This document shows positions 5,247 to 60,560 of a DNA stretch of 64,000 bases, piece by piece. The stretch covers positions 2,162 to 66,161 of the forward strand of contig MFCA01000022.1 of the NCBI GenBank assembly GCA_001775095.1. The letters are read 5' to 3'. How positions within the stretch are numbered: position 1 is the stretch's first letter; the number at the start of each line of letters is the position of its first letter. A program made the translations under genes and the position numbers. Source of the stretch: Candidatus Curtissbacteria bacterium RIFOXYA1_FULL_41_14 (GTDB taxonomy: Bacteria > Patescibacteriota > Microgenomatia > Curtissbacterales > GWA2-41-24). The notes beneath the pieces were generated by a model, which ran no database searches, was not told the origin of the DNA, and saw only the letters and a program-made list of their open reading frames with translations.

Positions 5247-5248
5247 AG

Positions 5249-6289: not shown

Positions 6290-6400
6290 GATAGTCTATT
6301 GAAAACTATTATTCTTCGAACAAAGTGAGAAGTCTCACAGTTCTCGCTCCGGAGAGTACCAGCCGGTACCCTCCTACGCTCGAACAATACAATAACGGTT
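6290..6400. mobile_element. MITE-like palindromic element copy A. Core GGAGAGTACC-N-GGTAC(C)CTCC flanked by inverted TTATTCTTCGAACAA / TTGTTCGAGCG arms.
   Basis: Four copies in this window (6290-6400, 24961-25150, 34981-35095, 38245-38350) are alignable by eye in both orientations. Confidence 0.6.
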
Positions 6401-6520: not shown

Positions 6521-7696
6521 ATGCACCGGGGAATAGCTACATTTACACTCGATTACGGTAAGTGTCCCAGATGGCTATTTGAGAGGATGGTAAGGCTGGG
6601 GCGGGAAATGACCCAGGTCTTGGTAGATGAATACGGACCCGAGGAGTTTATCAAGCGGATTGCCGATCCGGTTTGGTTTCAGTCTTTGGGAACTGTTTTG
6701 GCTTTTGACTGGAATGCTTCAGGGCTGACCACAATTCTGACCGCCGCTCTTAAAGAAGCGATCCGCGGCCAGGAAAAAGATTTGGGAATTTTTATTTGCG
6801 GCGGCAAAGGCAAAACCTCCAGAAAGACTCCTGATGAAATAACTGGATGGGGAAGCAGGTTGGGGTTGGAGAAGCTAGTAGTTAACAATCTGATTTACAA
6901 CTCCCGAATGTCTGCCAAAGTCGATAGCAGTCTGGTTCAAGATAATTTTCAAATTTATCATCACAGCTTTTTCTTTTCCCGAGGTGGATCATGGACAGTA
7001 GTCCAGCAGGGGATGAATACTGGTAATCAGACTGCTAGACGTTACCATTGGTACAGCGGGGATATTAACGATTTAGTCTGCGAACCTCACAGCGGTATCG
7101 TTTCCCAAGCAAAAATTGACAAAATGTTGAATATGACTGCAAAGGAAAGCGGCAGGACTAGAGATACAAGCGTCGATTTGATTTCGCAAAGCTATGTGAC
7201 CGTAATGCGCGATATTGAAATTTTAAGAAAACACTCTTCAAGTTTGTCGAGAATGATCGCCCTTCGACGACGCTCAGGGCAAGCGTTGAAGCGTAAGAAA
7301 GAAGAATTGGTACTACTTGAGCTTGCAGACAGTGAGTTTAGCTATCACCCGGTTGTAAGTGAGGATTTTTCCAGAAGTAAGTATCTTGAAAAAATTCTTG
7401 CAAAGCTGACTGGAGAGAAACCGAGAACTTATGAGGAACTATTGGCAACAGAGGGTGTTGGGCCAAAAACAATTCGGGCACTGGCACTGGTTTCTGAAAT
7501 TATCTACGGTGCAAAGCCTTCATACGAAGATCCTGCGCGCTACAGTTTCGCCCACGGCGGCAAAGACGCAACGCCTTATCCGGTAGACAAACCGACTTAC
7601 GATCAGACAATCGAGATTTTGAAAAATGCACTCAGAAAGACCAGAATCAGCTCTGTTGAAAAAGACAAAGCTCTTAGAAGACTAGGGAATGGATAG
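6521..7696 (+). CDS. DUF763-like protein. The ORF is open upstream to 6479, but ATG 6521 is the more likely start. The CCTTCGACGACGCTCAGGGCAAGC motif is in-frame at 7258-7284.
   Basis: FDWNASGLTTILTAALKEA and GVGPKTIRALALVSEIIYGAKPSYEDPARYSFAHGGKDATPYPVD resemble DUF763 from memory. Confidence 0.4.
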   Translation: MHRGIATFTLDYGKCPRWLFERMVRLGREMTQVLVDEYGPEEFIKRIADPVWFQSLGTVLAFDWNASGLTTILTAALKEAIRGQEKDLGIFICGGKGKTSRKTPDEITGWGSRLGLEKLVVNNLIYNSRMSAKVDSSLVQDNFQIYHHSFFFSRGGSWTVVQQGMNTGNQTARRYHWYSGDINDLVCEPHSGIVSQAKIDKMLNMTAKESGRTRDTSVDLISQSYVTVMRDIEILRKHSSSLSRMIALRRRSGQALKRKKEELVLLELADSEFSYHPVVSEDFSRSKYLEKILAKLTGEKPRTYEELLATEGVGPKTIRALALVSEIIYGAKPSYEDPARYSFAHGGKDATPYPVDKPTYDQTIEILKNALRKTRISSVEKDKALRRLGNG

Positions 7697-8216
7697 TTTT
7701 ATTTCGCACCAATTGAATCAATTTGCCGGTAAATGGCAAATGGTGGATTTACTGGTAATTTTTATTGCTAATTGGTTGCCGTATATTGCCTCAATATTCC
7801 TTTTTGGAATTTTTATTTGGAGAAAAAAACTTTCAAAAAATGCGCTGGTTTTGGTATTTTTTTCTGTGATTGTAGCTTTGATCGCTCGTCTTCCACTTGT
7901 TTTTTTAATTCAACTTTTTATCAACCGACCTCGGCCGTTCGTAGTTGATAGTCAGATAATCAATATTCTTGGACAACCCTTAACAAGCTCTTTTCCGTCC
8001 GGTCATGCGACCTTCTTTTTTGCCCTTGCAGCAGCTTTGTTTATTTTAGATAAAAGACTTGGCAGTATTTTGTTTTTATTCGTAAGCCTGATGGGACTTG
8101 CCCGAATTGTTGCCGGTGTCCATTGGACAACAGATATACTGGCCGGGGCTTTCTTAGGAATCTCAATAGTGTATCTTGCCTATTTTTCCTCCAGGCATTT
8201 TTTGCCCATCAAGTAA
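7689..8216 (+). CDS. PAP2-superfamily phosphatase (undecaprenyl-diphosphatase / phosphatidate-phosphatase-like)
   Basis: PAP2 motifs SFPSGHATFFFALAAALF and RIVAGVHWTTDILAGAFLG. Confidence 0.7.
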   Translation: MDSFISHQLNQFAGKWQMVDLLVIFIANWLPYIASIFLFGIFIWRKKLSKNALVLVFFSVIVALIARLPLVFLIQLFINRPRPFVVDSQIINILGQPLTSSFPSGHATFFFALAAALFILDKRLGSILFLFVSLMGLARIVAGVHWTTDILAGAFLGISIVYLAYFSSRHFLPIK

Positions 8217-9366: not shown

Positions 9367-10451
9367 AACTTCAACATATTATTTTTATACTTTTTCTTAT
9401 TTTTCTTTTTATTCCCAGAAATGTAACTGCTCAAGAGAAGAAAATTTTCCTTTTTTGGGGACAGGGTTGTCCGCATTGCGCCCAAGTAAACCAGTATTTT
9501 GAAGAAAAAGGTTTTTACGATAAATATCCAATAGAAAAGAAAGAAATATATAACAATAAGCCGAATGCAAATTTGTTAAATGAGTATTTTGAAAAATATC
9601 AAGTGCCTTTGGAGAATAGAGGCGTCCCGGCTATTTTTATTGGGAAGAATTATCTAATTGGAGGTGCAGATATTCCAAACCAATTCGAATCTTTGGCAGA
9701 TGAGTTTATTAAAAACAGACCTGGCGAAACCAAATCGCAAACCTTTCCTACATTACCTACAACCTTACCAAGGATAAATCTTTTATTACCTGCAGTTATT
9801 GCCGGCGCATTAGCCGACAGTGTTAACCCTTGCGAATTTGCTGTTTTGATATTACTTTTAACAGCTATTTTAGCTTCAGGCTCATCAAAAAGAGCATTAA
9901 AGGCTGGGCTATTGTTTTCGTTGGCTATCTTTACTTCTTATCTTGCGATGGGCTTAGGGCTTTATAAAGCTTTGACTTGGGGTAATTTGCCAAGGATCTT
10001 TTTGGTATTTATCGGGTTTTTAGCGATTGTTTTAGGGCTTTTCAATCTAAAAGATTATTTTTGGTATGGGAAAGGTGGTTTTTTAATGGAAGTACCGATG
10101 AGCTGGCGGCCTCATCTTAAGACTATAATTTCGAGAGTGACAAGTCCAGGCGGCGCATTTTTCATTGGCTTTCTAGTTAGTTTGTTTTTGCTTCCATGTA
10201 CTAGCGGGCCGTACATCATAATTCTAGGTATGCTTTCCCAAAAAACCAATTTTACTCAGGCATTTGCTTACCTTGTTTTTTATAACATCATTTTTATCCT
10301 GCCGATGATATTCATTACCCTGGCTGTTTATAAGGGTTTTAGCCTAAAACAGGCGGAAGAATTCCGCCAAAAAAAGCTGCGCTTATTACATCTTATTATT
10401 GGTCTTTTATTAGTCGGTATGGGTGGCGTAGTTTTGGCCGGCTGGATTTAG
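9360..10451 (+). CDS. Thiol:disulfide interchange membrane protein, an N-terminal thioredoxin/glutaredoxin-like CPHC domain fused to a CcdA/DsbD-type transmembrane domain
   Basis: WGQGCPHCAQV redox motif. TM region has ADSVNPCEFAVLILLL and a second Cys in LPCTSGPY. Confidence 0.6.
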   Translation: MVKLQHIIFILFLIFLFIPRNVTAQEKKIFLFWGQGCPHCAQVNQYFEEKGFYDKYPIEKKEIYNNKPNANLLNEYFEKYQVPLENRGVPAIFIGKNYLIGGADIPNQFESLADEFIKNRPGETKSQTFPTLPTTLPRINLLLPAVIAGALADSVNPCEFAVLILLLTAILASGSSKRALKAGLLFSLAIFTSYLAMGLGLYKALTWGNLPRIFLVFIGFLAIVLGLFNLKDYFWYGKGGFLMEVPMSWRPHLKTIISRVTSPGGAFFIGFLVSLFLLPCTSGPYIIILGMLSQKTNFTQAFAYLVFYNIIFILPMIFITLAVYKGFSLKQAEEFRQKKLRLLHLIIGLLLVGMGGVVLAGWI

Positions 10452-10479
10452 GAAAGATTTGTATTAAAATTAACCAGCA

Positions 10480-10905
10480 ATGAAATTGACAAAGGTAAAT
10501 ATCTTAATTGTTACAGGGTTGATTTTGGTTTCCACACTTTTGGGAGGTTGTTCGACCGGGCAAAATCAGACCTTAGGTGCTCAAACAATCAAAGAATTGA
10601 ACCTCCAGGAAGCTGAAAATTTAATTAATAATGATGACAATTTAACGGTAATTGACGTGCGCACGTCTCAAGAATATACAAGCGGACACTTGCCTCAAGC
10701 AATTAATCTGGACTATAGATCTGGGACTTTCAATGACGAACTGGGAAAACTGGATAAGAACAAGGTTTACCTGGTTTATTGCCAAAGCGGCAATCGGAGT
10801 CAAAAAGCAGTCGATATTATGAAAGAGCTTGGATTTAAAGAAGTTTACAACCTTTCAGGCGGAATTACTCAATGGGGTGTCAACAGCTTGCCAATAGTGA
10901 AATAG
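10480..10905 (+). CDS. Rhodanese-domain lipoprotein (sulfurtransferase)
   Basis: Lipobox LLGGC. Rhodanese active-site loop YCQSGNRS. Confidence 0.65.
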   Translation: MKLTKVNILIVTGLILVSTLLGGCSTGQNQTLGAQTIKELNLQEAENLINNDDNLTVIDVRTSQEYTSGHLPQAINLDYRSGTFNDELGKLDKNKVYLVYCQSGNRSQKAVDIMKELGFKEVYNLSGGITQWGVNSLPIVK

Positions 10906-16680: not shown

Positions 16681-17391
16681 TTAGTGTTTCACTTTTGAAG
16701 TGCGAAGCTTACGCACAATTTGTTCTGCAATCAACAAGTCTTGCGGGAAAGTTATTTTGAAATTCTGAAGTGAACAGGGAACAATTCTCACTTTAACACC
16801 TATTCTTTCAAGAAGTTGTGCGTCGTCCGTTCCGACAAAGTTTTGACCAGCGGCTCTTGCATGCGCCTTCCATAAATTTTTGAATGTTGACACCTGAGGT
16901 GTTTGGGCATACCAACATTTTTCCCGCAAAGGGGTTTCGGCTACGAATTCATCTTTTCCGACGATTTTGACAGTGTCTTTTGCTGGATAAGCTAAAAGAC
17001 TCGCGCCCCATTTTTTGGCAGCTCCGTAGACCTTTCCAATTTCATCTTGAGTAACAAACGGATTAACAGCGTTATGGATTCCTACCAAATCGTTATTTTT
17101 CATTCTGGTTTTCAGAAGTTTCAAAACTTCGAAGGTCGAGTTTTGACGACTGTCTTTGGCATCAACAACATCTTTTACCTTTTTCAATTTATATTTGGCA
17201 AGGATTGTTTTGATTTTTTTTAGGTCTTCTTTTCTTGCTGAGATAACGATATTATCAATGGTCTTACTTTTCTCAAATGGCTTGAGTGTCCAGTAGAGAA
17301 GAGGAAATCTGTTGAGTCCGGCAAAAATTTTATTGAATTTTAAGTTTAACCTTTGCCCTTTACCTCCGGCAACAACAATTAACCAATTCAT
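16681..17391 (-). CDS. ispD: 2-C-methyl-D-erythritol 4-phosphate cytidylyltransferase
   Basis: LIVVAGGKGQRLN nucleotidyltransferase motif. First gene of the operon. Confidence 0.8.
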   Translation of the reverse strand: MNWLIVVAGGKGQRLNLKFNKIFAGLNRFPLLYWTLKPFEKSKTIDNIVISARKEDLKKIKTILAKYKLKKVKDVVDAKDSRQNSTFEVLKLLKTRMKNNDLVGIHNAVNPFVTQDEIGKVYGAAKKWGASLLAYPAKDTVKIVGKDEFVAETPLREKCWYAQTPQVSTFKNLWKAHARAAGQNFVGTDDAQLLERIGVKVRIVPCSLQNFKITFPQDLLIAEQIVRKLRTSKVKH

Positions 17392-19062: not shown

Positions 19063-20148
19063 TTGTTTGGAATGAAAGTGGTACAGATAAGAAAATACGG
19101 AGGGAATGAAGTTTTGGAGGTTAGTGATATACCAAAATCAAAACCCGGTAAAAATCAGGTATTGGTTGTGGTACATGCGGCAAGCGTTAACCCCTTTGAT
19201 TTGGCTGTCCGCTCAGGAGGAATGAGAAGTGTCTCATCCTTACAATTACCGTTTACTCTGGGCGGCGATTTTGCCGGAGTTGTTTTAGAAACTGGTGAAG
19301 ATGTAGTTGATTTTAAAATTGGTGATGAAGTTTACGGCAGCGCAATTGTATTTGGCAGTGGTTCCGGAGCTTTTGCCCAAGAGGTTAGTGTGAACATCGC
19401 AAATTGCGCTTTAAAGCCTAAAGGGGTAAATATGCAAGAGGCAGCCGCGCTGCCGCTTGTCGGATCAAGCGCTGTGCAGGCGCTTGAGGAACATATCAAA
19501 TTAAAAAATAATCAAAAGATATTGATCCATGGCGGCGCAGGCGGAATCGGCCATATTGCGATCCAGCTTGCCAAATCGAAAGGCGCGTACGTTGCCGCAA
19601 CAGTAGGGGACAAAGATAGGGAATTTGTCGAAAGGCTTGGCGCGGATGAGGTGATCGACTATAAACTTCCGAGGGCTAAGAGCCCTCGGTCTTGTTCTTT
19701 AAGTTTATATGAGCGAGCAGATGACTCAAATACTCGGAAGTATGTATTCTCTCGCATTCAGCCGCGGACTGATAGTCCACGGTATTCTGCGAGCGAATAT
19801 AAAAATCAGAAATTCGAAGATATCTTATCAGATTTTGATGCAGTGTATGATACTGTCGGAGGCGATGTCACAGAAAGGTCTTTTAGAGTTTTGAAAAAGG
19901 GCGGAATACTTGTTTCTATGAAAGGACAGCCTGATGAGAAGCTAGCTCAAAAATACCAGGTGTTTGCTATCGGACAATTCACAAAAATTAACGCAGAGCA
20001 CTTGAAGCGGCTTTCAGAACTGGTCGATGCAGACGTTGTCAAAGTTCATGTCGACAAGATTTTTACACTTGATGCGATAAAAGATGCTTTCGAATATCAA
20101 GAGATCGGCCATCCCCAAGGAAAGGTTGTTGTTAAAATTGGAAATTAA
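19063..20148 (+). CDS. Zn-independent MDR-family NADPH:quinone oxidoreductase, carrying a ~45-aa in-frame insertion encoded by a repeat element
   Basis: MKVVQIRKYGGNEVLEV...VLVVVHAASVNPFD and a GxGxxG-type GGAGGIGHIAIQ. The insertion lies between VIDYKL and FEDILSDFDAVYDTVGG. Confidence 0.7.
   Translation: MFGMKVVQIRKYGGNEVLEVSDIPKSKPGKNQVLVVVHAASVNPFDLAVRSGGMRSVSSLQLPFTLGGDFAGVVLETGEDVVDFKIGDEVYGSAIVFGSGSGAFAQEVSVNIANCALKPKGVNMQEAAALPLVGSSAVQALEEHIKLKNNQKILIHGGAGGIGHIAIQLAKSKGAYVAATVGDKDREFVERLGADEVIDYKLPRAKSPRSCSLSLYERADDSNTRKYVFSRIQPRTDSPRYSASEYKNQKFEDILSDFDAVYDTVGGDVTERSFRVLKKGGILVSMKGQPDEKLAQKYQVFAIGQFTKINAEHLKRLSELVDADVVKVHVDKIFTLDAIKDAFEYQEIGHPQGKVVVKIGN
19664..19798. mobile_element. 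~135-bp palindrome-rich repeat lying in-frame inside the quinone-oxidoreductase gene. The reverse-complement copy is at 58243-58378.
   Basis: RC alignment with 58243-58378 is about 85% identical by eye. Includes the CCGAGGGCT-AAG-AGCCCTCGG and CCGYGGACT-RAT-AGTCCACGG hairpins. Confidence 0.65.
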
Positions 20149-21306: not shown

Positions 21307-21321
21307 AAGGGGTTGAAACCT

Positions 21322-21396
21322 ATATTGTTCGAGCCCTTCGTCGAAGCTCAGGGCGAGAACTGTCAGACTTCTCACTTTGTTCGAAGAAGAATAAGG
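21322..21396. mobile_element. MITE-like element variant with the same TTGTTCGAGC...TTGTTCGAAGAA arms as the other copies but a CCCTTCGTCGAAGCTCAGGGCGAG core
   Basis: Arms are shared with the copies at 34981-35095 and 24961-25150. The core belongs to the CTTCG...CTCAGG motif family. Confidence 0.5.
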
Positions 21397-24960: not shown

Positions 24961-25150
24961 TTAGCTTTGAGCTTATTAACCCTTATTGTTCGAGCCCCTC
25001 GTTGAAACTCAGGACGAGAACAACATGCTTCGCATATTGTTCGAGCACAGGAGAGTACCATCCGGTACTCTCCGTAGCGAGAACTTTCTGACTTCTCACT
25101 TTGTCGAGTCTAACTCGACTTTGTTCGAAGAATAACAAGGTTTTCAACAA
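24961..25150. mobile_element. Composite, nested MITE-like element: the palindromic GGAGAGTACC core plus a CCCCTCGTTGAAACTCAGGACGAG module and a GTCGAGTCTAACTCGAC hairpin module
   Basis: Contains the arm motifs twice (TTATTGTTCGAGC at about 24983 and 25037), with different cores between them. Confidence 0.5.
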
Positions 25151-27671: not shown

Positions 27672-28118
27672 ATGCGCTACGATTTAATGGTTGCTGTTGG
27701 TATCAAGGATGCGGACTCACTTGCCGGCAAACTTGAGAAATTTATTAAAGATGCTGCGGCGCAAGAGGTAAAAGTTGAGAAGCTGGGCAAAAAGACCTTA
27801 GCTTATCCTATTGCCAAGCAGCTAGAGGCCGAGTATTTCCTGTTTAATTTCGAGGCCCCGGCAGAGGCAATTTCTGCAATTACTCAAAACCTAAGACTTG
27901 AGCGAGAGACAATATTGAGGTATCTTTTAACAAAGGTAACAAAAGTAACAAAAGGAACAAGGGGTACAAAGGGAACAAAAGAGTTAATAGAATCAGAGGG
28001 TGAGAAAACAAAAGAAACAGGGAAAGTTGTGGTAAAGACGGTAGTAAAGGCAGGTACAAAGGTAACGAAAGGAACAAAGGGTACAAAAGGAACAAAAGTG
28101 AAAGGAAAGAAAAGTTGA
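27672..28118 (+). CDS. rpsF: 30S ribosomal protein S6 with a lysine-rich low-complexity C-terminal extension
   Basis: MRYDLMVAVGIKDAD...KTLAYPIAKQLEAEYFLFNFEA is an S6 core. The tail is KVTKGTKGTKGTK. Confidence 0.8.
   Translation: MRYDLMVAVGIKDADSLAGKLEKFIKDAAAQEVKVEKLGKKTLAYPIAKQLEAEYFLFNFEAPAEAISAITQNLRLERETILRYLLTKVTKVTKGTRGTKGTKELIESEGEKTKETGKVVVKTVVKAGTKVTKGTKGTKGTKVKGKKS
27934..28100 (+). repeat. Two blocks of tandem 9-nt repeats (GGTAACAAA / AGGAACAAA / GGGTACAAA) inside rpsF, encoding (V/G)TKG repeats
   Basis: Read directly. The repeats are multiples of 3 and in-frame. Confidence 0.55.
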
Positions 28119-28200: not shown

Positions 28201-28764
28201 ATGGCAAGTAGAGCATCGTTGAACAAAGTATTATTAATTGGAAATCTGACAAGAGATCCGGAGTTGAGATATACGCCTTCAGGCGCGGCGGTTTGTTCTT
28301 TCGGGCTGGCTACAAATAGAGTTTACGTTGCTTCTGACGGTACTAAAAAAGAGGAAGCGGAATTTATCAGGATCGTTTCCTGGAATAAACTGGCCGAGCT
28401 TTGTTCGCAGCTTCTTTCAAAAGGCAGGAAAGTTTATGTTGAAGGAAGATTGCAGACGAGAAGCTGGGAGACCCCCGATGGAATAACTAAGCAGACAACG
28501 GAAGTAGTTATTGATGACATGAGAATTCTGGATTCCCGCAGAAGTTTCGAGGAAGCCAGCACGGGGGAAAATATCCCTTATATAGAAAATACATCTGCAA
28601 GCCAGACAAAAGTCAAAGAGCCATCTTCCTTCGCTAAAGCTACGGAGGACAAGGAGAGTCTAAGGGTCAAAGAGTCAAAGGGGACAAAAGGGTCAAAAGA
28701 GCCAAAGGATTCAAATGGAGGCGGAGATGAGGATAAAATAGATTTAGACGATTTGCCATTTTAA
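28201..28764 (+). CDS. ssb: Single-stranded DNA-binding protein
   Basis: OB-fold N-terminus LNKVLLIGNLTRDPELRYTPSGAAVCSF...W. Acidic tail ending in DDLPF. Confidence 0.8.
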   Translation: MASRASLNKVLLIGNLTRDPELRYTPSGAAVCSFGLATNRVYVASDGTKKEEAEFIRIVSWNKLAELCSQLLSKGRKVYVEGRLQTRSWETPDGITKQTTEVVIDDMRILDSRRSFEEASTGENIPYIENTSASQTKVKEPSSFAKATEDKESLRVKESKGTKGSKEPKDSNGGGDEDKIDLDDLPF

Positions 28765-31367: not shown

Positions 31368-31403
31368 AATTCGGAATTTCAAATTTCAAATTTCAAATTT
31401 CAA

Positions 31404-31458
31404 ATCCCAGTGCACACCCCCGGGGTGCGCGTCGGCAATCGTCTATTGCTCACCCCGG
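31404..31458. repeat. Double palindrome CACACCCCCGGGGTGCG-N22-CTCACCCCGGGGGTGAGC lying between the convergent genes htrA and dedA. Likely a bidirectional terminator and a member of a mobile repeat family whose paralogue sits inside prfA.
   Basis: Palindromes read directly. Preceded by the hairpin TTCCGAATAAAATTCGGAA and (AATTTCA)x4. Confidence 0.6.
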
Positions 31459-31472
31459 GGGTGAGCTATGAA

Positions 31473-33599: not shown

Positions 33600-34517
33600 T
33601 TATTCATGTAGGGCATCAATTATTTTATCCAATTTGCCATTCATTACTTCTTCCAGGTTGTGCCATGACTTATTAATTCTATGGTCTGTAATGCGATTCT
33701 GGGGATAATTATAAGTGCGGATTTTTTCGGAGCGGTCGCCCGTGCCCAGTTGGGCTGAGCGTTGAGAACTGAGTTGAGAGGATTGCTTTTCTTCTTCAAG
33801 TTGATAAATTTTTGAGCGCAAGATTCCCATAGCGATTTCGCGGTTTTGGCCTTGTGAACGTTCGGTTTGAGCCTTAACAACAATTCCGGTCGGTTTGTGT
33901 TTAATTCTGACGGCGGTTGAAACTTTATTAACATTTTGACCGCCGTGGCCGCCGGAACGGAAAGCTTCAAATTCAATATCGGCAGGATCAATAATAACTT
34001 GAGTCGGAGGTACTTCCGGCAAAATCGCAACTGTAGCAGTTGAGGTATGAATACGGCCGGATGACTCGGTGACAGGAACTCTTTGAACCCGGTGGACACC
34101 TGATTCATGTTGAAGTTTTTCAAAAACGTTTTTGCCGGAAATTTTAACAATTACAGTCTTGATATTTCCAAGTCCGCCTTCGGTGCAGTCCAATTCTTCA
34201 AACTGCCATCTGTTGTTGACGGCAAACTTTTGATACATTCGCAGAAGATCGGCTGCGAAAAGCCCGGCTTCATCGCCGCCGGCAGCGGAGCGGATTTCTA
34301 GAATGACAGACGAGTTTGTGGGCCCACCCCCGGGGTGCGATCCGGGTGACGTCAAGACTTCACCCCGGGGGTGAGTCAGGGCAATTTTTTCTTCTTCAAG
34401 CTTCTCTATTTCTTCCTGCGCGAGCTCGGCCATAGAAGGGTCAGCTGACACTAATTCTTGAGCTTCTTTAATCTTCTTTTCAATATTTTCAATTTGTTGT
34501 TTTTGATAATCGGTCAT
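33600..34517 (-). CDS. prfA: Peptide chain release factor 1 with an in-frame palindromic-element insertion in the N-terminal domain
   Basis: GGQ motif [14 protein letters not shown]1-type PVT tripeptide in [16 protein letters not shown]. The extra segment [21 protein letters not shown] is encoded by the element. Confidence 0.85.
34318..34384. mobile_element. Double-palindrome element (CACCCCCGGGGTG ... CACCCCGGGGGTG) inserted in-frame within prfA. Paralogue of 31404-31458.
   Basis: Same two palindromes and a similar spacer as the intergenic copy. The ORF remains open through it. Confidence 0.65.
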
Positions 34518-34980: not shown

Positions 34981-35095
34981 TGTTAAAAACCCTTATTGTT
35001 CGAGCACAGGAGAGTACCGTCCGGTACTCTCCGCAGCGAGAACTCAAACTTCTCACGTTGTTCGAAGAATAATAGTTTTCAATAGACTATCGATG
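34981..35095. mobile_element. MITE-like palindromic element copy C
   Basis: CCCTTATTGTTCGAGCACAGGAGAGTACCGTCCGGTACTCTCCGCAGCGAGAAC...TTCTCACGTTGTTCGAAGAATAA, a near-perfect RC of copy D. Confidence 0.65.
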
Positions 35096-35977: not shown

Positions 35978-36234
35978 TTTAATTTCTAATTTCTAATTTC
36001 TAAATCCTAAACAAATCAAAATGACCAAAATTCAAAACAATTTTAAGAGAAATTTATCTTTTTTGATCATTTGATATTTGAATTTTGAAATTGTTTAGAG
36101 TTTAGAATTTAGAGTTTAGAATTTTTATTAGTCATTAGGTTAATATCAGCATGAGCTTCGCTCATCTGATATATCAGTAAACTTCATTAGATTTTTATAT
36201 TAATTACAATAATTGAAGTTTAGCTGATATTAGG
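35978..36234. repeat. ~260-bp AT-rich intergenic element, copy 1, in reverse orientation and abutting the eamA start
   Basis: RC aligns by eye with 59764-60028. Contains the CTAAACTCTAAATTCTAAAC and TTAGGATTTAGAAATTAGAAATT blocks and a CTGATATATCAG-hairpin-CTGATAT module. Confidence 0.65.
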
Positions 36235-37134
36235 TCAATTTTGTATCGCTTCAATAAGTCGGTCAAGGCCGAAAGAAAAGCCGACAGCAGGAATTTGCCT
36301 TTTAGAAAACATGCCAATTAAGTTATCGTATCTGCCGCCTGAGCCAATGGATAAATTGCCATAAGACGGGATTTTTAGTTCAAAAATCGCTCCTGTGTAA
36401 TAATCAAGACCGCGGGCTAAAAGGGGGTCAAAAATATATTCCCGACTATCGATTCCCCCCTCATCAAGAATTTTAAAAAGTGATTTAAGATTATCAGTCA
36501 GCGGTTTATTTGCCATACTCTGGAGTATGGCAGTTGCTTTCGCTTTTGAAAGCCCCTTTTGCGTTAATTCGTTGACAACTCCTTCTTCGCCGATCTTTTC
36601 CAGTTTATCAAGAGCGATGACGACTTCCTTGTCAACTCCTTCAAAATTTTTGCGGTCGTTAATTTTAATTTGCGAGCTTTTAAGGCCAACTGCTTTGACA
36701 GCTTTAAGTGCGGCGGCGATAATTTTTGCGTCTTCTTCTAAACTGTCTGATCCGACAGTGTCAAAGTCCAGTTGAGTGAATTCGCGATAGCGGCCTTTTT
36801 GGGGATTTTCGCCGCGGAAAACCTGGCCGATTTGATACCGGCGAAAGGGCAGTGGGGGATTATTAGTTGCGACATAACGGGCGACTGGAACGGTCAGATC
36901 GTAGCGCAGAGCCAAGTCTCTGCCGCCGCGATCTTTAAACTCATAGATTAGTCTTTCCTCCTCACCATATTTACCTTTTAGAGTCTCGGCAAATTCGATA
37001 GTTGGTGTTTCGATTGGTGCAAAACCGAACTCTTCCAGTACATCGACGATCTGATTAATAACAGCTCGTCTTTTTTTGGCTAGATCCGGTTTAATATCGC
37101 GGAAGCCTTTTGGTGTCGGCGGGGCTTTTTGCAT
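36235..37134 (-). CDS. hisS: Histidyl-tRNA-synthetase-like catalytic core (class II motifs 1-3) lacking a C-terminal anticodon-binding domain
   Basis: RYDLTVPVARYVA, FRRYQIGQVFRGENPQKGRYREFTQ (motif 2) and GGRYDNLIGMF...AVGFSFGLDRL (motif 3). The ORF ends 5 aa after motif 3. Confidence 0.6.
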   Translation of the reverse strand: MQKAPPTPKGFRDIKPDLAKKRRAVINQIVDVLEEFGFAPIETPTIEFAETLKGKYGEEERLIYEFKDRGGRDLALRYDLTVPVARYVATNNPPLPFRRYQIGQVFRGENPQKGRYREFTQLDFDTVGSDSLEEDAKIIAAALKAVKAVGLKSSQIKINDRKNFEGVDKEVVIALDKLEKIGEEGVVNELTQKGLSKAKATAILQSMANKPLTDNLKSLFKILDEGGIDSREYIFDPLLARGLDYYTGAIFELKIPSYGNLSIGSGGRYDNLIGMFSKRQIPAVGFSFGLDRLIEAIQN

Positions 37135-37192: not shown

Positions 37193-38134
37193 TTAGGGGA
37201 GTAGGTAGATTAAGTCGATAAGTTGTTTGCCTTTTTCTTCATGGGATATGATGATGGTATTTTTGTCTTTGGTGATATCTGTGATTTTGGCTTCTTTGCC
37301 GTCAACTAATATCTGAGAGGTTTTACCTAAAGTAAATTCCTCAATTTCACCACTTTGCTGATTCTTTGCCGAAAACAGGTTCTGGCGGGGGGCGGTTAAA
37401 GTTTTGACAACAGTTAGTCGCCGCGAATTTTGCGGAACAGCTTCTCTAATAATCTCGATCTTTTTGGCCTCTAGCTGGTCTTCTTTTGAGAGATTTCCGA
37501 TGACAATCGCAAAATCACCGATTCTGATATTCCTGAGTGCAGAGCCGATTGACTCTTTTTCTTTATCATCTTCTTTGGGTAAGGTTATTGCAGTTGTTTT
37601 TGAAGCACGGATCTCTTTTTGACCATCGGTAGTTGTGAGGGTAATTAGCGTATCAAATATAGTTTTGACTGGCCCAGTGTAAACCGTGTCGCCGTCCTTA
37701 GTATCTTGAGCAATCAAAAGAGTTAGGGATTTTTTATTTTTTGTTTGAAAATCAGGTGTTACGGTCACCAGATCAACTAAATTCAGGCCGTCGGCTAAAT
37801 CAATTTCCTTCTCAGAATTTCCGCTTGTGTCTGTTTTAACTACGGCTTGAGAAGTATTGGAAAAGATCGCAAGGTAAGAATTTGGCGTTGAGGTACCTTC
37901 AAATTTAACTTTTTTGGAGGTTAAGACGGAGAAATCTTTAGGGGAGAGTTTGAGTTTCTGGGGATTTTTCCCCTCAGAGGCAACTGTTTGGCTATTTATT
38001 GCAGTCTGGACTTCTTGATTTTGAATTTTCGGTTGCCTTTGCCAGAGCCAATAGAGGGCGAAGATGAAAGAGGCTGCCAGAATTAAAATCACGAGGTATT
38101 TGGCGATATGGTTGATAATAGGAAACGAACTCAT
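37193..38134 (-). CDS. Hypothetical N-terminally anchored extracytoplasmic protein
   Basis: N-terminal TM, then a T/S/K-rich beta-rich region. Confidence 0.35.
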   Translation of the reverse strand: MSSFPIINHIAKYLVILILAASFIFALYWLWQRQPKIQNQEVQTAINSQTVASEGKNPQKLKLSPKDFSVLTSKKVKFEGTSTPNSYLAIFSNTSQAVVKTDTSGNSEKEIDLADGLNLVDLVTVTPDFQTKNKKSLTLLIAQDTKDGDTVYTGPVKTIFDTLITLTTTDGQKEIRASKTTAITLPKEDDKEKESIGSALRNIRIGDFAIVIGNLSKEDQLEAKKIEIIREAVPQNSRRLTVVKTLTAPRQNLFSAKNQQSGEIEEFTLGKTSQILVDGKEAKITDITKDKNTIIISHEEKGKQLIDLIYLLP

Positions 38135-38445
38135 AATTTCTAATTGCCTTAATTACTAAAAACCCTAAACTCTAAATTCTAAACTCCTGCCTGCCGGCAG
38201 GCAGGCTAAACAATTTCAAAATACAAAACTCAAATGATCAAAAAAGAGATAGTCTATTGAAATCCTTATTCTTCGAACAACGTGAGAAGTTTGAGTTCTC
38301 GCTGCGGAGAGTACCGTCCGGTACTCTCCTGCGCTCGAACAATATGTTTATCATCCTGTTTTGAATTTTAGATTTACCTCATTTGGATTTATTTAGGATT
38401 TAGAAATTAGAAATTAGAATTTTACTCTTTAGGTCTTTTAGCTTA
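38135..38445. repeat. AT-rich element copy 2, interrupted by a nested MITE-like copy D (38245-38350) and an extra CCTGCCTGCCGGCAGGCAGG palindrome. Lies between divergent gene starts.
   Basis: Both flanks align with copy 3. The MITE-like copy D (38245-38350) sits between them. Confidence 0.6.
38245..38350. mobile_element. MITE-like palindromic element copy D, nested inside the AT-rich element
   Basis: Reverse complement of copy C. Confidence 0.65.
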
Positions 38446-38533: not shown

Positions 38534-39226
38534 ATGGTTGACATTTGGTTTTATGGCCAGTCATGTTTTAAGGTCAAAGGCAAAAGTGCCAGTATTGTAT
38601 TTGATCCTTACAACGAAGAATTTACGGGACTTCCCAAACTTAAACTTGAGGCCGATATTGTCTGTGTAACTCACGATCACAAAGATCACAATAATGTTGA
38701 AGCAGTGTCAGGCGCTTCGGAGAAAAATGAGCCCTCCGGGCCAGGAGCCCCTCCGGATCGGCGGCCATTTGTAATTTCCGGGCCGGGAGAATACGAAATT
38801 TCGGGGGTTAACATTGTTGGGATTGACAGTTTTCACGACGATAAAGACGGCAGCGAGCGGGGTAAAAATACCATATATCACATAGAGATTGATGAGGTGA
38901 ACATTGTTCATTTGGGGGATCTGGGCCAAAAGAAGCTAACTCAAGAACAGGCTGAAACTCTTTCTACCTGTGATATTCTCTTAATCCCTACGGGTGGCGT
39001 ATATACCATAGGTTACAAAGATGCTCCGGATATTATCGCCCAGGTTGAACCAAAAATTGTTATTCCGATGCACTACAAGTTGCCAGGATTAAAATTTGAT
39101 CTTGATCCGGTTGATAAATTTATGGCAGCAATGGGTAAGGAAAAGGCGCAGCCACAAAGTAAACTTTCGATTTCAAAAGAGAAATTGCCGCAGGAAGTGG
39201 AAATAGTGCTGCTTTCGACAGCATAA
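38534..39226 (+). CDS. MBL-fold metallo-hydrolase (UPF0173-like)
   Basis: VTHDHKDH, an HxHxDH variant, plus a downstream His/Asp pattern. Confidence 0.6.
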   Translation: MVDIWFYGQSCFKVKGKSASIVFDPYNEEFTGLPKLKLEADIVCVTHDHKDHNNVEAVSGASEKNEPSGPGAPPDRRPFVISGPGEYEISGVNIVGIDSFHDDKDGSERGKNTIYHIEIDEVNIVHLGDLGQKKLTQEQAETLSTCDILLIPTGGVYTIGYKDAPDIIAQVEPKIVIPMHYKLPGLKFDLDPVDKFMAAMGKEKAQPQSKLSISKEKLPQEVEIVLLSTA

Positions 39227-48188: not shown

Positions 48189-48338
48189 ATGGGTAATTTC
48201 GGAGGATTCTATATCAGCAGGTCGCCTCGGTACAGTCCTTCGACTGCGCTCAGGACTTCATGCCGATGGCGCTTTTCTGATATAAAATTATTGTATTCGC
48301 ACATGGATATTCATAAAAAATATGAAGTAGGAGAGTAA
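48189..48338 (+). CDS. 49-aa upstream stub ORF beginning MGNFGGFYISR. It mimics the N-terminus of the next gene (MGTYGGFYKGE), reads through a repeat element and stops 3 nt before that gene's ATG.
   Basis: Read directly. AAGAGGTG upstream. TAA at 48336-48338. Confidence 0.4.
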   Translation: MGNFGGFYISRSPRYSPSTALRTSCRWRFSDIKLLYSHMDIHKKYEVGE

Positions 48339-48341
48339 CTA

Positions 48342-48479
48342 ATGGGTACTTACGGTGGATTTTATAAAGGGGAGCGTAAGAAACTAAAAAAAGAGGTTTT
48401 GGAAAAAAAGGCTGCAAAAATAAAGCGGATTGCAACAATTCCTCAAGTAGAAATCCTCGGTAAAAAAGGGAAGTAAGTT
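48342..48479 (+). CDS. 45-aa lysine-rich small protein MGTYGGFYKGERKKLKKEVLEKKAAKIKRIATIPQVEILGKKGK
   Basis: Short ORF with AGGAGA 7 nt upstream. Not in the supplied ORF track because it is under 60 aa. Confidence 0.35.
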
Positions 48480-52914: not shown

Positions 52915-53034
52915 ATGAGCGGACATTCGAAGTGGAGCCAAATATTAGCAGGTAGTCTTGGCACGCTTCGTCGTGCCAATGGCGCTCCTCTGATATTTGC
53001 GACCATAAGGAGGATTTCCTATGTCAGGTCATAG
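52915..53034 (+). CDS. 39-aa upstream stub ORF beginning MSGHSKWSQI, identical to the YebC N-terminus but with different synonymous codons. It reads through a repeat element and terminates 14 nt into yebC.
   Basis: Read directly. AAGGAG upstream. Stop TAG at 53032-53034. Confidence 0.45.
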   Translation: MSGHSKWSQILAGSLGTLRRANGAPLIFATIRRISYVRS

Positions 53035-55932: not shown

Positions 55933-57219
55933 ATGAAGCTTTACGAGTTTGAAGGACATCGGATTCTTGCAAAAGTCGGGATAGAAAGCCCTTTTTTTGT
56001 TGCTTGTTCGAATTTAGACGAGGTAAAACAGGCTCGCAAACGTCTTAAATTTCCAATGGTTGCCAAAGTGCAAGTACTTTCCGGCAGGCGGGGCAAGTCT
56101 GGCGGAGTAAAATTTCTCTCAAACGAGAAACAACTTTTAACCTTTGCAAAAGAAATGTTTGGGAACAAATTTAATGGGGAGGACGTCAGATTTATAAGTT
56201 TTTCTAAAAAAATCGAGATCGAAAAAGAACTCTACCTTTCGATTGCCTACGATACTATCAAAAAAAATCCCTTTTTTCTTTTTTGTGAAGAGGGTGGCGT
56301 TGATATCGAAGAGGTAAAAAAGAGGAGTCCTGAAAAGATTGTTAGAGTAGATATTGATTCGTTGACCGGACCGACGAAAAAGAATCTGGAAGCGCTGTTT
56401 AGGCATGAACTCGTCGATTTTGCAACCCGTCTTTGGGATGCTTTTTGGCGATTTGATTGCCGTATGGTGGAGATTAACCCGTTAGCACTTGTCAGAGAAT
56501 CTGGATCTCACCCCCGGATTGAAGTCAAGACGAAATCTGGGGTGCACCTCGGGGATGGGCATAGTTATGTCGCTATTGATGCCAAAATCATCCTTGACGA
56601 TGCAGGTTTGGCAAGACATCGCGATTTGGATGTTTTGCCAAAGGGCGCAGCGAGTGCGGTACCGACAGAGAGAGAACTGGCAGCAAGAAAGGTTGATGAA
56701 GGTGACTGGCGGGGAACCGCCGGCTCTATTTTTATTGAGCTTGACGGTGACATCGCTGTTTTAGCGTCCGGCGGCGGAGCCAGTCTTTTGACAATGGATG
56801 CGCTGACTTCAGCCGGCGGTAAAGGGGCAAACTATACTGAATATTCTGGTAATCCACCGGCAGAAAAAGTTGAAAAATTAACAAAAATTACTTTGGATAG
56901 AGAAAATCTCAGCGGGTGTTTAGTTTGTGGAGCAGTAGCCAACTTTACAGACATTTATGAAACCTTAAAAGGTTTTACTGAGGGTTTAAGGCAGGTCAGA
57001 CCAAAGCCAAGTTATCCAATCGTCATCCGACGGGGAGGTCCGGGACAGGAGAAGATATACGAAGTAATTGGCAAGATTGCCCAAAAAGAAGATTACGACA
57101 TTCATCTTTTTGGGCCTGAGACACCGATATCAGTTGCGTGTCAAAAGATGGTAGAACTATCTAACGACTATAAAATTCGAAATCCGAAGTACGAAAGTAA
57201 AATCGATTCGTATGATTAG
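55933..57219 (+). CDS. Succinyl-CoA-synthetase-beta-like ATP-grasp subunit (SucC/CcsA/AclB family)
   Basis: Aligns by eye along the full length with SucC (KVQVLSGRRGKSGGVKF, VEINPLAL, LASGGGASLLTMDAL). Confidence 0.7.
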   Translation: MKLYEFEGHRILAKVGIESPFFVACSNLDEVKQARKRLKFPMVAKVQVLSGRRGKSGGVKFLSNEKQLLTFAKEMFGNKFNGEDVRFISFSKKIEIEKELYLSIAYDTIKKNPFFLFCEEGGVDIEEVKKRSPEKIVRVDIDSLTGPTKKNLEALFRHELVDFATRLWDAFWRFDCRMVEINPLALVRESGSHPRIEVKTKSGVHLGDGHSYVAIDAKIILDDAGLARHRDLDVLPKGAASAVPTERELAARKVDEGDWRGTAGSIFIELDGDIAVLASGGGASLLTMDALTSAGGKGANYTEYSGNPPAEKVEKLTKITLDRENLSGCLVCGAVANFTDIYETLKGFTEGLRQVRPKPSYPIVIRRGGPGQEKIYEVIGKIAQKEDYDIHLFGPETPISVACQKMVELSNDYKIRNPKYESKIDSYD

Positions 57220-58176: not shown

Positions 58177-58242
58177 ACATCCTTATAAATATCTGAAAGC
58201 CCTGTTTAGCATTATTGATTTTGATTTTGATGATTATTTATA

Positions 58243-58378
58243 TTCGCTCGCAGAACACCGTGGACTATTAGTCCACGGATGAGGAGCGAGAGAATACATA
58301 CTTCCGAGGAGCGGGATGTTCTGCTCGCTCATGTAAACTTAAAGAACAATACCGAGGGCTCTTAGCCCTCGGAAGTTT
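58243..58378. mobile_element. Intergenic copy of the ~135-bp palindrome-rich repeat that is in-frame in the oxidoreductase gene
   Basis: RC alignment to 19664-19798. Contains perfect hairpins CCGTGGACTA/TTAGTCCACGG and CCGAGGGCTCTTAGCCCTCGG. Confidence 0.65.
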
Positions 58379-58415
58379 ATAATATTTGTATCCGTGAATT
58401 AATTCATAGATACAA

Positions 58416-59022: not shown

Positions 59023-59763
59023 GTGATGCCAAAGCCGTACCGGACTTCAATAACCACCCATGCTGATGGTTCACCTCATGTATACGGTTATGATCTGACA
59101 AAGCTTGCCGGGAATACCTCTTTTGCCAAGGCTATCTACCTTATTCTTAAAGGTCAAATGCCGGATAAGGCGAGCGAGAAGATGTTTGAGGCGATGTTAA
59201 CGATCGCTATCGATCACGGTGTTGAACCTCCATCAGTTGTTGCTGCAAGAAACGTTTCTTCGGGCGGTAGTCCAATTCAGGCGGCGGTTGCGGCCGGGGT
59301 ACTGGCGCTTGGGGAATTTCACGGAGGAGCAATTGAGAAGGCGATGGAAAATTTTAAAAAATATCAGGGTGTTGGGGTTAAGATAATGGTTGATGATTTT
59401 AACAAAAATGGCGAGCGTATTTCCGGTTTCGGCCATCGACTATATGCTGACGATCCCAGAACGCAAAGGCTTTTAGAAATTGCCAAGGAACTTGGTTTTT
59501 TCGGTAAATATGTCAAATTTGCTCTTGAAGTTGAAGCAGAAATTTCCAAAGAGTCAAAAAAATTACCTCTTAATATCGACGGATGTTTTTCAGTACTGCT
59601 CTTGGAAATGGGATTCAATCCCAAGGTCGCCAACGGTATTTTTATAATTGCCAGAACACCGGGGTTGGTGGCTCACGTAGTTGAGGAAACCTTGCGTGAG
59701 AAACCGGCAAGGCGGTTAACCGAAAACGATGTGGAATATGACGGACCAAGACCGAGACGGTAA
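59023..59763 (+). CDS. Truncated citrate-synthase-family protein (citryl-CoA-lyase-like, C-terminal catalytic part only)
   Basis: Conserved citrate-synthase catalytic contexts HGGA, GFGHRLY...DPR and IARTPGLVAHVVEE. It lacks the ~150-aa N-terminal region of full citrate synthases. Confidence 0.65.
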   Translation: MMPKPYRTSITTHADGSPHVYGYDLTKLAGNTSFAKAIYLILKGQMPDKASEKMFEAMLTIAIDHGVEPPSVVAARNVSSGGSPIQAAVAAGVLALGEFHGGAIEKAMENFKKYQGVGVKIMVDDFNKNGERISGFGHRLYADDPRTQRLLEIAKELGFFGKYVKFALEVEAEISKESKKLPLNIDGCFSVLLLEMGFNPKVANGIFIIARTPGLVAHVVEETLREKPARRLTENDVEYDGPRPRR

Positions 59764-60028
59764 ATTGATCTAATATCAGCTAAACTTCAATTATTATAAT
59801 TAATATAAAAATCTAATGAAGTTTACTGATATATCAGATTCGCCGAAGGCGAAGGCTGATATTAACCTAATGACTTAACAAAATCCTAAACTCTAAATTC
59901 TAAACTCTAAACAATATCAAAATTCAAATGTTCCAAAAAATAATTAAACTTAAAATTGTTTTGAATTTTGTATTTTGATTATTTGGATTTATTTAGGATT
60001 TAGGATTTAGAAATTAGAAATTTCAAAT
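59764..60028. repeat. ~260-bp AT-rich intergenic element, copy 3, filling the whole spacer between the citrate-synthase-like gene's stop and the ruvC ATG
   Basis: Aligns with the RC of 35978-36234 and with the flanks of 38135-38445. Confidence 0.65.
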
Positions 60029-60553
60029 ATGATTATTTTTGGCATTGATCCTGGGACAGCTACAACTGGCTATGGGGTTATAAAGAAAGTTAAAAGCTCT
60101 CTCGAATTGGTAGATTACGGGTGCATAAGTACATGTAAAGATGACCCAATGCCCTTGAGGTTATATAGTATCCAAAAATCTTTAAAGAGCTTACTCAGAC
60201 AGTTTAATCCTGATTGTGTTGTTGTAGAGCAATTGTTCTTTGGTGCGAATTCCCGTACTGCAATGACTGTTGGACAAGCAAGGGGAGTAGTGCTCTCGTC
60301 CGTTGCGTCCTATAGGCTTCCCATATTTGAATACCAGGGATTACATGTTAAACATACTTTAACTGGAAATGGCAGGGCAGACAAAAAAGAAATCCAAAAA
60401 TCGGTGATGAAATACTTGAGAAAAAGAACATTGAGAAAACCGACAAACGGATATCTTGACGACGCAGCTGATGCCTTAGCCGTGGCAATTTGTCATGCGA
60501 TTAAGATTAAAGGTAACAAAAGTGTCAAAGCTGACAAAAGTGTCAAAGGCTAG
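60029..60553 (+). CDS. ruvC: Holliday junction resolvase RuvC
   Basis: MIIFGIDPGTATTGYGVI... catalytic DxG/E pattern. Length 174 aa. Confidence 0.8.
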   Translation: MIIFGIDPGTATTGYGVIKKVKSSLELVDYGCISTCKDDPMPLRLYSIQKSLKSLLRQFNPDCVVVEQLFFGANSRTAMTVGQARGVVLSSVASYRLPIFEYQGLHVKHTLTGNGRADKKEIQKSVMKYLRKRTLRKPTNGYLDDAADALAVAICHAIKIKGNKSVKADKSVKG

Positions 60554-60560
60554 CTGCTTC

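Follow-up and report, generated by a model that had tools for sequence, protein, structure and literature searches.

Why do two unrelated genes carry the same sequence of about 260 nt directly in front of their start codons? The question is raised by a stretch of 64,000 nt from Candidatus Curtissbacteria bacterium RIFOXYA1_FULL_41_14 (assembly GCA_001775095.1, contig MFCA01000022.1, positions 2,162 to 66,161; hereafter the window), in which an AT-rich element precedes both eamA and ruvC. An earlier note, made from the letters of the window, had drawn attention to this element. The host is a Candidatus Curtissbacteria population (Microgenomates; candidate phyla radiation, CPR) that is frequent in Rifle-type groundwater assemblies. 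We conclude that the element is a composite of nested, non-coding, hairpin-forming modules of the selfish type and not a regulator that evolved for eamA or ruvC, a reading to which we assign a probability of about 0.7. The element has a structure, is made of modules, represents an insertion and sits flush with coding boundaries; it is best explained as a selfish element of the kind of MITEs (miniature transposable elements with inverted repeats) and intervening sequences (IVSs), both of which are types already known. What the earlier note had missed is that the element consists of separable modules and that its 3' half belongs to a family found across phyla.

The element is a composite insertion

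Three copies are present in the window. Copies 1 and 3 align over their full length (85% identity over ~260 nt) and fill the spacers before eamA and ruvC, so the ~260-bp element described previously is real. Identity amounts to 97% in the first 78 nt, 93% at the junction of the two parts, here termed A and B, and 88% in the right arm (last 57 nt). The copies and their parts are as follows.

35978-36241, minus strand: copy 1, composite A+B, occupying the spacer between a HisRS/HisZ-like gene and eamA
36125-36241, minus strand: A part of copy 1, with the 5' terminus AAATTGACCTAAT, hairpin 1, hairpin 2 and then TTAACCTAATGACT
36171-36230, minus strand: hairpin 1 of copy 1, closed by ATATCAG/CTGATAT
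36143-36172, minus strand: hairpin 2 of copy 1, ATATCAG-ATGAGC-GAA-GCTCAT-G-CTGATAT
35981-36124, minus strand: B part of copy 1, a heptamer-armed inverted repeat of 144 nt with 19% G+C and stops in all six frames (nhmmer E=2e-29)
59762-60028, plus strand: copy 3, composite A+B, occupying the spacer between a citrate-synthase-like gene and ruvC
59762-59880, plus strand: A part of copy 3, with hairpins 1 and 2
59773-59832, plus strand: hairpin 1 of copy 3, within the A part
59831-59862, plus strand: hairpin 2 of copy 3, ATATCAG-A-TTCGCC-GAA-GGCGAA-GG-CTGATAT
59881-60022, plus strand: B part of copy 3, 142 nt with 18% G+C (nhmmer E=1e-29), with the ruvC ATG 6 nt downstream
38160-38422, plus strand: copy 2, B part only, between the divergent genes 37193-38134 (minus strand) and 38534-39226 (plus strand), with two nested insertions
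38186-38205, no strand assigned: 20-bp perfect GC palindrome CCTGCCTGCCGGCAGGCAGG, inserted in the left arm of copy 2 where two heptamers meet
38266-38360, no strand assigned: member of a different repeat family (TATTGTTCGAGC…GCGAGAAC…) that interrupts the loop of copy 2

The borders of the element coincide with those of the coding regions. The repeat begins about 7 nt earlier than first proposed and, in copy 1, includes the stop of the upstream gene: its first bases include the TGA (36235-36237) of the HisRS/HisZ-like gene, and at the other end 3 nt separate its last base from the TTG with which eamA starts (35977). Copy 3 is bordered by the TAA stop (59761-59763) of the citrate-synthase-like (ACL) gene, a member of an ATP-citrate-lyase-type cluster, and by the ruvC ATG at 60029. 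The earlier note had stated that the right-hand block always lies just 5' of a start codon; this is true for copies 1 and 3, but in copy 2 the block is 111 nt away from the ATG at 38534, and it is a degenerate AATTAGAAATT that adjoins the ATG of the divergent gene at 38134. Likewise, the proposed MITE-like interruption of copy 2 is indeed a copy of a repeat family but not the sole insertion, since the GC palindrome interrupts this copy as well. All three copies are intergenic, in mRNA spacers and not in rRNA, and contain no open reading frame (ORF).

The shared motifs are far more frequent in the window than expected by chance. Each of the two sequence blocks originally quoted occurs six times (expected 0.01 and 0.00), CTGATATATCAG occurs twice, only in copies 1 and 3 (expected 0.05), and ATATCAG 28 times (expected 6.1). 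Both full copies are predicted to fold into three hairpins, with z = -7.2 and -8.8 in comparison to shuffled sequence.

The orthologous ruvC site of relatives is informative. These relatives keep the order citrate synthase, ruvC, DUF5656, with spacers between citrate synthase and ruvC of 1 nt (L209), 64 nt (L211) and 107 nt (L213), compared to 265 nt in the window. In L209, whose RuvC is 80% identical, the Shine-Dalgarno sequence lies inside the upstream gene; the spacer of L211 consists of another heptamer-like sequence, and that of L213 contains only a partial B-like right arm. The 1-nt spacer in L209 shows that the element is an insertion. It is moreover a composite, because copy 2 consists of B alone and because the A and B families differ in their distribution (see below).

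Exact matches to the RuvC and EamA proteins were found in GCA_036738575.1 and GCA_001775235.1, and the closest named RuvC homologues are from Curtissbacteria. Four assemblies with the ruvC copy are identical to the window at this site, as are two with the eamA copy. These data also bear on a suggestion of the earlier note, namely that recombination between the two inverted copies would invert the segment 36.2-59.8 kb. The geometry was confirmed: two copies that are 85-97% identical lie in inverted orientation 23.5 kb apart, as such a switch requires. However, the parental junctions were present in all 30 assemblies examined (24 of 24 for ruvC and 6 of 6 for eamA) and in the metagenome contigs L219, L237 and L229, relatives have the same citrate-synthase-ruvC order, the GC skew is positive across the segment without a flip between 36 and 60 kb, and no recombinase is associated with the copies. 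An inversion switch is therefore highly improbable.

Hairpins of the A part have interchangeable interiors between constant clamps

The A part is ~115 nt long, begins with AAATTGAYCTAAT and ends with TTAACCTAATGACT. Its hairpin 1 is formed by ATATCAG-CTAAACTTCA, a 27-nt AT loop and TGAAGTTTA-CTGATAT, and it overlaps with hairpin 2 through the palindrome CTGATATATCAG. Hairpin 2 consists of ATATCAG, a 6-bp stem, a GAA loop, the complement of the stem and CTGATAT. A metagenome scan using the hairpin-2 flanks detected A in a handful of related groundwater CPR contigs, with one or two loci per population; a metagenome scan built to exclude the two known hairpins gave no match. A is absent from all loci selected with the B pattern. 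The A part is thus a module restricted to the Curtissbacteria lineage, with interiors that are interchangeable and always self-complementary.

The stems of hairpin 2 in copies 1 and 3 had been described as perfectly self-complementary between identical flanks and as differing at every position. The former holds, but only four of the six pairs differ: comparison of ATGAGC-GAA-GCTCAT with TTCGCC-GAA-GGCGAA shows that the second pair (T-A) and the loop-closing C-G are unchanged. The interiors found in the window and in related contigs are TTCGCC, TTCGTC, TTCAGC, TTCACC, GTCCGC, GATTAC, ATGAGC, a T·G variant and a loop variant. In these nine distinct sequences 100% of the cells are paired, double changes occur at five of the six inner pairs, and the covariation score was reached by none of 500 shuffles, whereas the stem keeps its 6 bp, the loop its 3 nt (mostly GAA) and the hairpin its position. 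The earlier inference that the small hairpin is under structural constraint was therefore right. The alignment of further copies that had been recommended supported hairpin 2 and revealed no covariation in the long B arms.

How the stems change is a separate question. With flanks that are 97% identical, the two window copies differ at four of six stem pairs, a pace too high for compensation step by step. Hairpin 1 exists in two types, a and b, within identical clamps, and in relatives it is replaced wholesale by a module CAGGTCAAC…GTTGCTCCT. The change thus looks modular rather than gradual. The same observations, together with perfect GC palindromes at heptamer boundaries in unrelated genomes, would be expected if the covariation of hairpin 2 were a by-product of mutation at the DNA level, with intrastrand template switching keeping quasi-palindromes perfect and modules being swapped between constant clamps. 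We consider this possible, albeit doubtful. Stem length, loop and position are conserved across very different sequences, and single-pair compensations (C-G to T-A in L217, G-C to A-T in L242) resemble ordinary compensatory evolution.

ATATCAG/CTGATAT had been proposed as a boundary pair shared with other elements, and further modules are indeed enclosed by it at 48211-48283 and, imperfectly, in the leader of yebC (52940-52996). The uninterrupted clamp site ATATCAGCTGATAT is absent from the window. At 52916-53030, ATGAGCGGACATTCGAAGTGGAGCCAAATA (MSGHSKWSQI), which comprises the first ~10 codons of yebC, is succeeded by a module of the clamp type, ATATTAG-CAGGT…GCTCCT-CTGATAT, then by an AAGGAGG Shine-Dalgarno sequence and by another ATG TCA GGT (MSG…), at which the called ORF starts; yebC thus appears to have its 5' end on both sides of the insert. 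A similar arrangement was observed in a small ORF (48190-48470), where ATGGGTAATTTCGGAGGATTCTAT (MGNFGGFY) runs into an ATATCAG…CTGATAT module and a second start, ATGGGTACTTACGGTGGATTTTAT (MGTYGGFY…), is located at 48343.

Two copies of ~330 bp resembling A+B are located on contig L222 of a related population (5140-5560 and 10200-10560) in direct orientation, 5 kb apart. They are identical except for one A/G difference in hairpin 2 (GGCGAAGG versus GGCGGAGG), and in L236 both copies carry G. This pattern suggests that the copies have undergone gene conversion with each other.

The B part belongs to a family found across phyla

The B part is built of two inverted arrays of about four CTAAAnn heptamers each around the core CTAAACAAT…ATTGTTTAG. 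The left arm leads through about four CTAAAnn heptamers into CTAAACAATnTCAAAATTCAAAT and a variable loop; the right arm consists of TTTGAATTTTG…ATTTGGATTTrTTTAG followed by about four TTAGnnn heptamers. The left arm of copy 3 consists of AAATCCTAAACTCTAAATTCTAAACT and then the core CTAAACAAT, its right arm of the core TTTATTTAG and then GATTTAGGATTTAGAAATTAGAAATT. The uninterrupted copies of the window are 142-144 bp long and non-coding, and three copies are present in 64 kb.

To determine the distribution of this part, the pattern CTAAACAATNNCAAAATNCAAA was scanned over one genome per species, which yielded at least 118 loci. Among the matches listed, all are metagenome-assembled genomes (MAGs) except for one chance match without flanks in Rodentibacter, and nearly all have the same heptamer arrays on both sides. 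The bacterial hosts among them include many CPR lineages, Chloroflexi/Dehalococcoidia, Planctomycetota, Desulfobacterota, Nitrospirota, Nitrospinota, Bacteroidota, WOR-3, Aminicenantia, Elusimicrobia and Binatia, and the archaeal hosts ANME-1/Methanophagales and Methanosarcinales. The B part is thus an ORF-less member of a family that occurs across many bacterial phyla and some archaea. Scans of viral contigs with short patterns gave mostly chance matches, with real B-like copies only in L028, L030 and L038, and no B match was found in plasmid and phage collections. A profile built from 65 short copies detects the full window copies with E ~1e-29 and the two halves of copy 2 with E ~1e-10.

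Alignment of 69 short copies showed sharp termini (TAAAYYCTAA … TTAGRRTTTA). The conserved CTAAA/TTTAG positions of the arms are 81-100% complementary, while the two to three free positions per heptamer form Watson-Crick pairs in 16-57% of cases, which is the chance level, and T·G is as frequent as C×A. When copies were split according to the direction of the neighboring gene, no preference for G·U on the transcribed strand of the arms was detected (125 G·U versus 155 C×A). The B arms are therefore inverted arrays of a motif and not a helix kept by compensatory change. Stop codons in all six frames are present in 65 of the 69 copies. Near one end, the stop of the upstream gene lies at -9 to +10 nt and is often supplied by the element; at the other end a start codon is located 0-12 nt away (30 of 53 ends facing a gene start have one within 12 nt).

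GC-rich perfect mini-palindromes were observed exactly at heptamer boundaries of B arms in unrelated phyla (window 38186-38205, L100, L190, L170 and L092). L100 and L190, from other phyla, have inserts nearly identical to CCTGCCTGCCGGCAGGCAGG at comparable positions, and the mini-palindrome CCTGCCTACCGGACAGGCAGG occurs twice in L100. This suggests that the mini-palindromes are a second, tiny hitch-hiking module.

Longer members of the family enclose a single kind of gene. This ORF of ~120 aa encodes a PF05635 protein (four-helix bundle, '23S rRNA intervening-sequence protein', S23p, Avd-like), which is enclosed by the same arms in six copies and one degenerate copy (L096) among the matches listed (E = 2e-12 and 5e-21). 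Its ATG follows directly after …CTAAACAAATTCAA, i.e. right behind the inner left arm. The PF05635 subfamily is enormous, with 75-83% identity across phyla, and four of four randomly fetched homologues (from Chloroflexi, Euryarchaeota and others) were also flanked by B arms, bringing the ORF-bearing relatives to ten intact ones and the degenerate one. In these relatives with the same arms no transposase was seen, and the PF05635 protein is the sole product. A literature search for the literal repeat sequences, CPR MITEs and the IVS protein returned no description of the B family, which is thus apparently undescribed and linked to a PF05635 gene.

Family members were also found at sites other than mRNA spacers. 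One copy lies within the 5' region of a 16S rRNA gene of a Thermodesulfovibrionales MAG (L098, ~7660-7810), and another fills the 23S-5S spacer of a WOR-3 MAG (L181, 5725-5880). In two Curtissbacteria relatives a B-like copy is inserted in frame in carB (L207, 17240-17385; L209, 18059-18209, with a weaker second match at 17220-17311). These inserts add 42-48 residues between the FALNP and IIEVNARLSRSS motifs, and TAG is changed to TCG or TAC exactly at the in-frame positions. Unrelated insertions are present at the same carB site in L211 and L213, and variability is likewise seen in the linker that joins the two halves of CarB, which appears to derive from heptamers.

The element is probably not a regulator of its neighbors

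The position of the element directly upstream of genes could mean that it is a structured cis-acting RNA, a 5' leader or small RNA, that senses a signal or binds a factor to control eamA and ruvC. The strong covariation of hairpin 2 and the far better folding of the whole element in comparison to shuffled sequence fit with this, as do the T·G pair in one hairpin-2 variant, which would be a G·U wobble in the sense RNA, and the orientation of A, since both window copies and seven of the ten A-like loci are in sense just upstream of a gene. However, the remaining three A-like loci are antisense, and the T·G variant occurs both at one of these, L222b, and at the sense locus of L236 and L240. The B family is oriented 14:14 with respect to transcription, its long arms pair at chance level at the free positions without an excess of G·U on the transcribed strand, and the downstream genes are unrelated. 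Furthermore, a close relative does not have the element at the orthologous site, where its spacer is 1 nt long. A search against Rfam 15 found only a tRNA and noise, both for the window at the gathering score and for the element at E<=10. It is hence quite unlikely that the element is a conserved regulatory RNA linked to the genes downstream of it, as the earlier note had considered. AT-rich CPR spacers with the look of common regulatory regions can be stacked selfish modules, and in the present case shared upstream sequence should not be taken as a sign of co-regulation.

Inspection of all gene starts in the window showed that most have no Shine-Dalgarno sequence and that a TAnnnT box ends 5-8 nt before the start codon, which suggests that expression in this CPR genome is largely leaderless. 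Because the genome is mostly without Shine-Dalgarno sequences and has -10-like boxes before its starts, we examined whether the element has been exapted as a portable, Correia-like expression cassette, with the terminal heptamers (TTAGAAT, TTAGGAT) serving as -10 boxes or weak Shine-Dalgarno sequences and thereby supplying a promoter or a start. The geometry of the heptamers yields TTTAGR-N17-TAGRAT, and such sites were flagged by the promoter scan; start codons lie 0-12 nt from element ends, and the PF05635 ORFs begin right behind the inner left arm. Nevertheless, promoter-like matches were at chance level in all three spacers, where promoter and terminator scans gave counts at or below the shuffle expectation and no terminators. 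The window copies end with TAGAAA and thus do not have the key T at position 6, and the distance to the ATG is broad (2-14 nt), with no peak at leaderless spacing. Element ends adjacent to starts are not enriched in either motif in comparison to ends adjacent to stops (TAnn[AT]T 0.40 versus 0.50, AGGA 0.20 versus 0.27), which does not favor the terminal heptamer as a promoter or Shine-Dalgarno sequence. A role as expression cassette is accordingly unlikely.

A probable selfish composite and its possible spread

Taken together, these results argue for an insertion of selfish-type modules, and the MITE-like flavor noticed at the outset was right. In the course of events that we propose, A+B would have entered two short spacers as a unit, and B alone a third. 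Spread would occur by a DNA-level copying step, with no transposase of the element's own and with the PF05635 protein possibly acting in trans. Once inserted, the element would be co-transcribed with its neighbors and fold into three hairpins; by analogy with rRNA intervening sequences and Correia hairpins, the long B hairpin is a putative substrate of an RNase III-type enzyme. Stops in six frames and an AU-rich 3' end may let the flanking genes work in a genome that is mostly without Shine-Dalgarno sequences. Members of the B family settle at any site that can accommodate a long AT-rich hairpin: between stop and start codons that they directly adjoin in short spacers, as intervening sequences in rRNA genes and their spacers, and even in frame in carB.

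Several points weigh against this reading. The B family is not associated with a transposase or any other known gene for mobility, and no target-site duplication could be made out by eye in the 69 aligned termini because these are A/T-rich; a duplication of TA or TAA could hide in TAAAYY…RRTTTA, since the flanks are also A/T-rich and the sole empty site is from a diverged species. The RuvC of the species with that single empty site is 80% identical, so that the site is not a polymorphism between strains, and since all strain-level assemblies are identical, no recent movement is in evidence. The similarity of the two full copies could be due to gene conversion instead of transposition. Covariation of a hairpin can arise without selection when quasi-palindromes are corrected by template switching. 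Finally, the spread over phyla rests on MAGs, some of which may be mis-binned, though several matches are on contigs of 1-3 Mb.

The enclosed gene invites a bolder and tentative proposal, which we regard as possible but less likely than not. The heptamer-armed hairpin may be the hallmark of an unrecognized mobile element, crossing phyla and reaching into the archaea, with the PF05635 protein as its only gene. This protein would recognize the CTAAAnn arrays and promote spread or maintenance of the element, and the ORF-less copies, including the three of the window, would be non-autonomous derivatives carrying grafted A hairpins. S23p, the 'IVS protein' (PF05635), is a relative of the Avd protein of diversity-generating retroelements. 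If true, the proposal would explain the scatter of this orphan family through rRNA genes, spacers and coding regions of CPR, Chloroflexi, Planctomycetes and ANME archaea.

The B family joins rRNA intervening sequences, spacer MITEs and palindromic insertions within proteins in one architecture that crosses phylum and domain borders, and a protein that has long been an orphan, the '23S rRNA IVS protein', gains a concrete and testable genomic partner. The clamp hairpins are a compact natural system for studying how small palindromes arise and persist. For practical work, the B family can readily serve to trace horizontal exchange between uncultured anaerobes; in MAGs it probably also causes contigs to break and genes to be called wrongly.

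Other repeats in the window

The family with a copy nested in the loop of B copy 2 is separate from A and B. Its members are ~80-100 bp long (TATTGTTCGAGC…hairpin…GCGAGAAC…CTTCTCAC…GTTCGAAGAATAA) with variable internal GC hairpins; apart from the nested copy, one is located just downstream of eamA. The copies are:

6290-6389: copy of the TATTGTTCGAGC repeat family
21317-21393: copy of the TATTGTTCGAGC repeat family
24978-25104: copy of the TATTGTTCGAGC repeat family
34994-35091: copy of the TATTGTTCGAGC repeat family
38266-38360: copy of the TATTGTTCGAGC repeat family

A pair of inverted repeats of ~145 bp (19660-19803 and 58237-58381), 90-91% complementary and 38.5 kb apart, is unrelated to A or B. 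At 31370-31465 a tandem run of the heptamer AATTTCA is followed by paired GC hairpins (GCACACCCCCGGGGTGCG … CTCACCCCGGGGGTGAG), and similar hairpin pairs recur at 34322-34375 and 56507-56560. Repeats with a period of 9 bp (ACAAAGGTA-like) are located at the ends of coding regions (27921-28114, 28675-28715 and 60507-60556), including the 3' end of ruvC.

Comparison with known systems

A close parallel to the B family is found in rRNA intervening sequences with an S23p/PF05635 ORF, which have been described in Coxiella burnetii, Leptospira, Brucella and Xanthomonas (PMC4990558). The Coxiella IVS has terminal inverted repeats, an S23p ORF and tandem heptamers in its stem, and is excised by RNase III (PMC4990558). 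The B family shares with these elements the long stem-loop formed by terminal inverted repeats, the PF05635 cargo when present, and the location of members in a 16S rRNA gene (L098) and a 23S-5S spacer (L181); both are regarded as selfish and as tolerated since the hairpin is removed or ignored at the RNA level. In contrast to these IVSs, the window copies lie in mRNA spacers and not in an rRNA helix, and they enclose no PF05635 ORF. The heptamer is CTAAAnn here and GACAGAT in Coxiella, and the B arms are periodically mismatched while the Coxiella stem is nearly perfect over 28 bp.

The window copies share with MITEs a small size (<~500 bp), the absence of coding capacity, multiple copies, terminal inverted repeats and presence or absence at an orthologous site. 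An autonomous parent with a transposase and the same ends was not found, as the ORF-bearing relatives encode PF05635 only. They differ from a cis-regulatory RNA, which would accompany one gene family in a fixed orientation, since their neighbors are unrelated and the orientations are 14:14 for B and 7:3 for A.

Correia elements of Neisseria (Correia repeat enclosed elements, CREE) are likewise AT-rich inverted repeats of 100-160 bp directly upstream of genes and form co-transcribed hairpins, co-transcription being probable for the element described here. RNase III cuts the Correia hairpins, which can also contain promoters directed outward (review PMC10969869). The two are not similar in sequence, however: Correia elements have terminal inverted repeats of 26 bp, a TA duplication and a site for integration host factor, and they are confined to one genus, whereas the B family extends over many phyla and into both prokaryotic domains and showed no enrichment of promoter-like motifs at ends adjacent to starts.

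REP/BIME units (repetitive extragenic palindromes and bacterial interspersed mosaic elements) and the pneumococcal BOX/RUP (repeat unit of pneumococcus) elements resemble the modules described here in being small palindromic units that follow stop codons, are modular and nest within each other; by analogy, stabilization or processing of mRNA may be a shared property. No transposase of the RAYT type (REP-associated tyrosine transposase) was seen here, and a clamp with an interchangeable interior is not a described feature of REP. The palindromic elements of Rickettsia, finally, are ~150 bp long and occur in spacers as well as in frame in housekeeping genes, whose reading frame stays open, as it does in the carB copies. 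They are genus-specific and not related in sequence to the B family, and the window's own copies are all intergenic, but the carB copies of L207 and L209 are in-frame insertions of just this kind.

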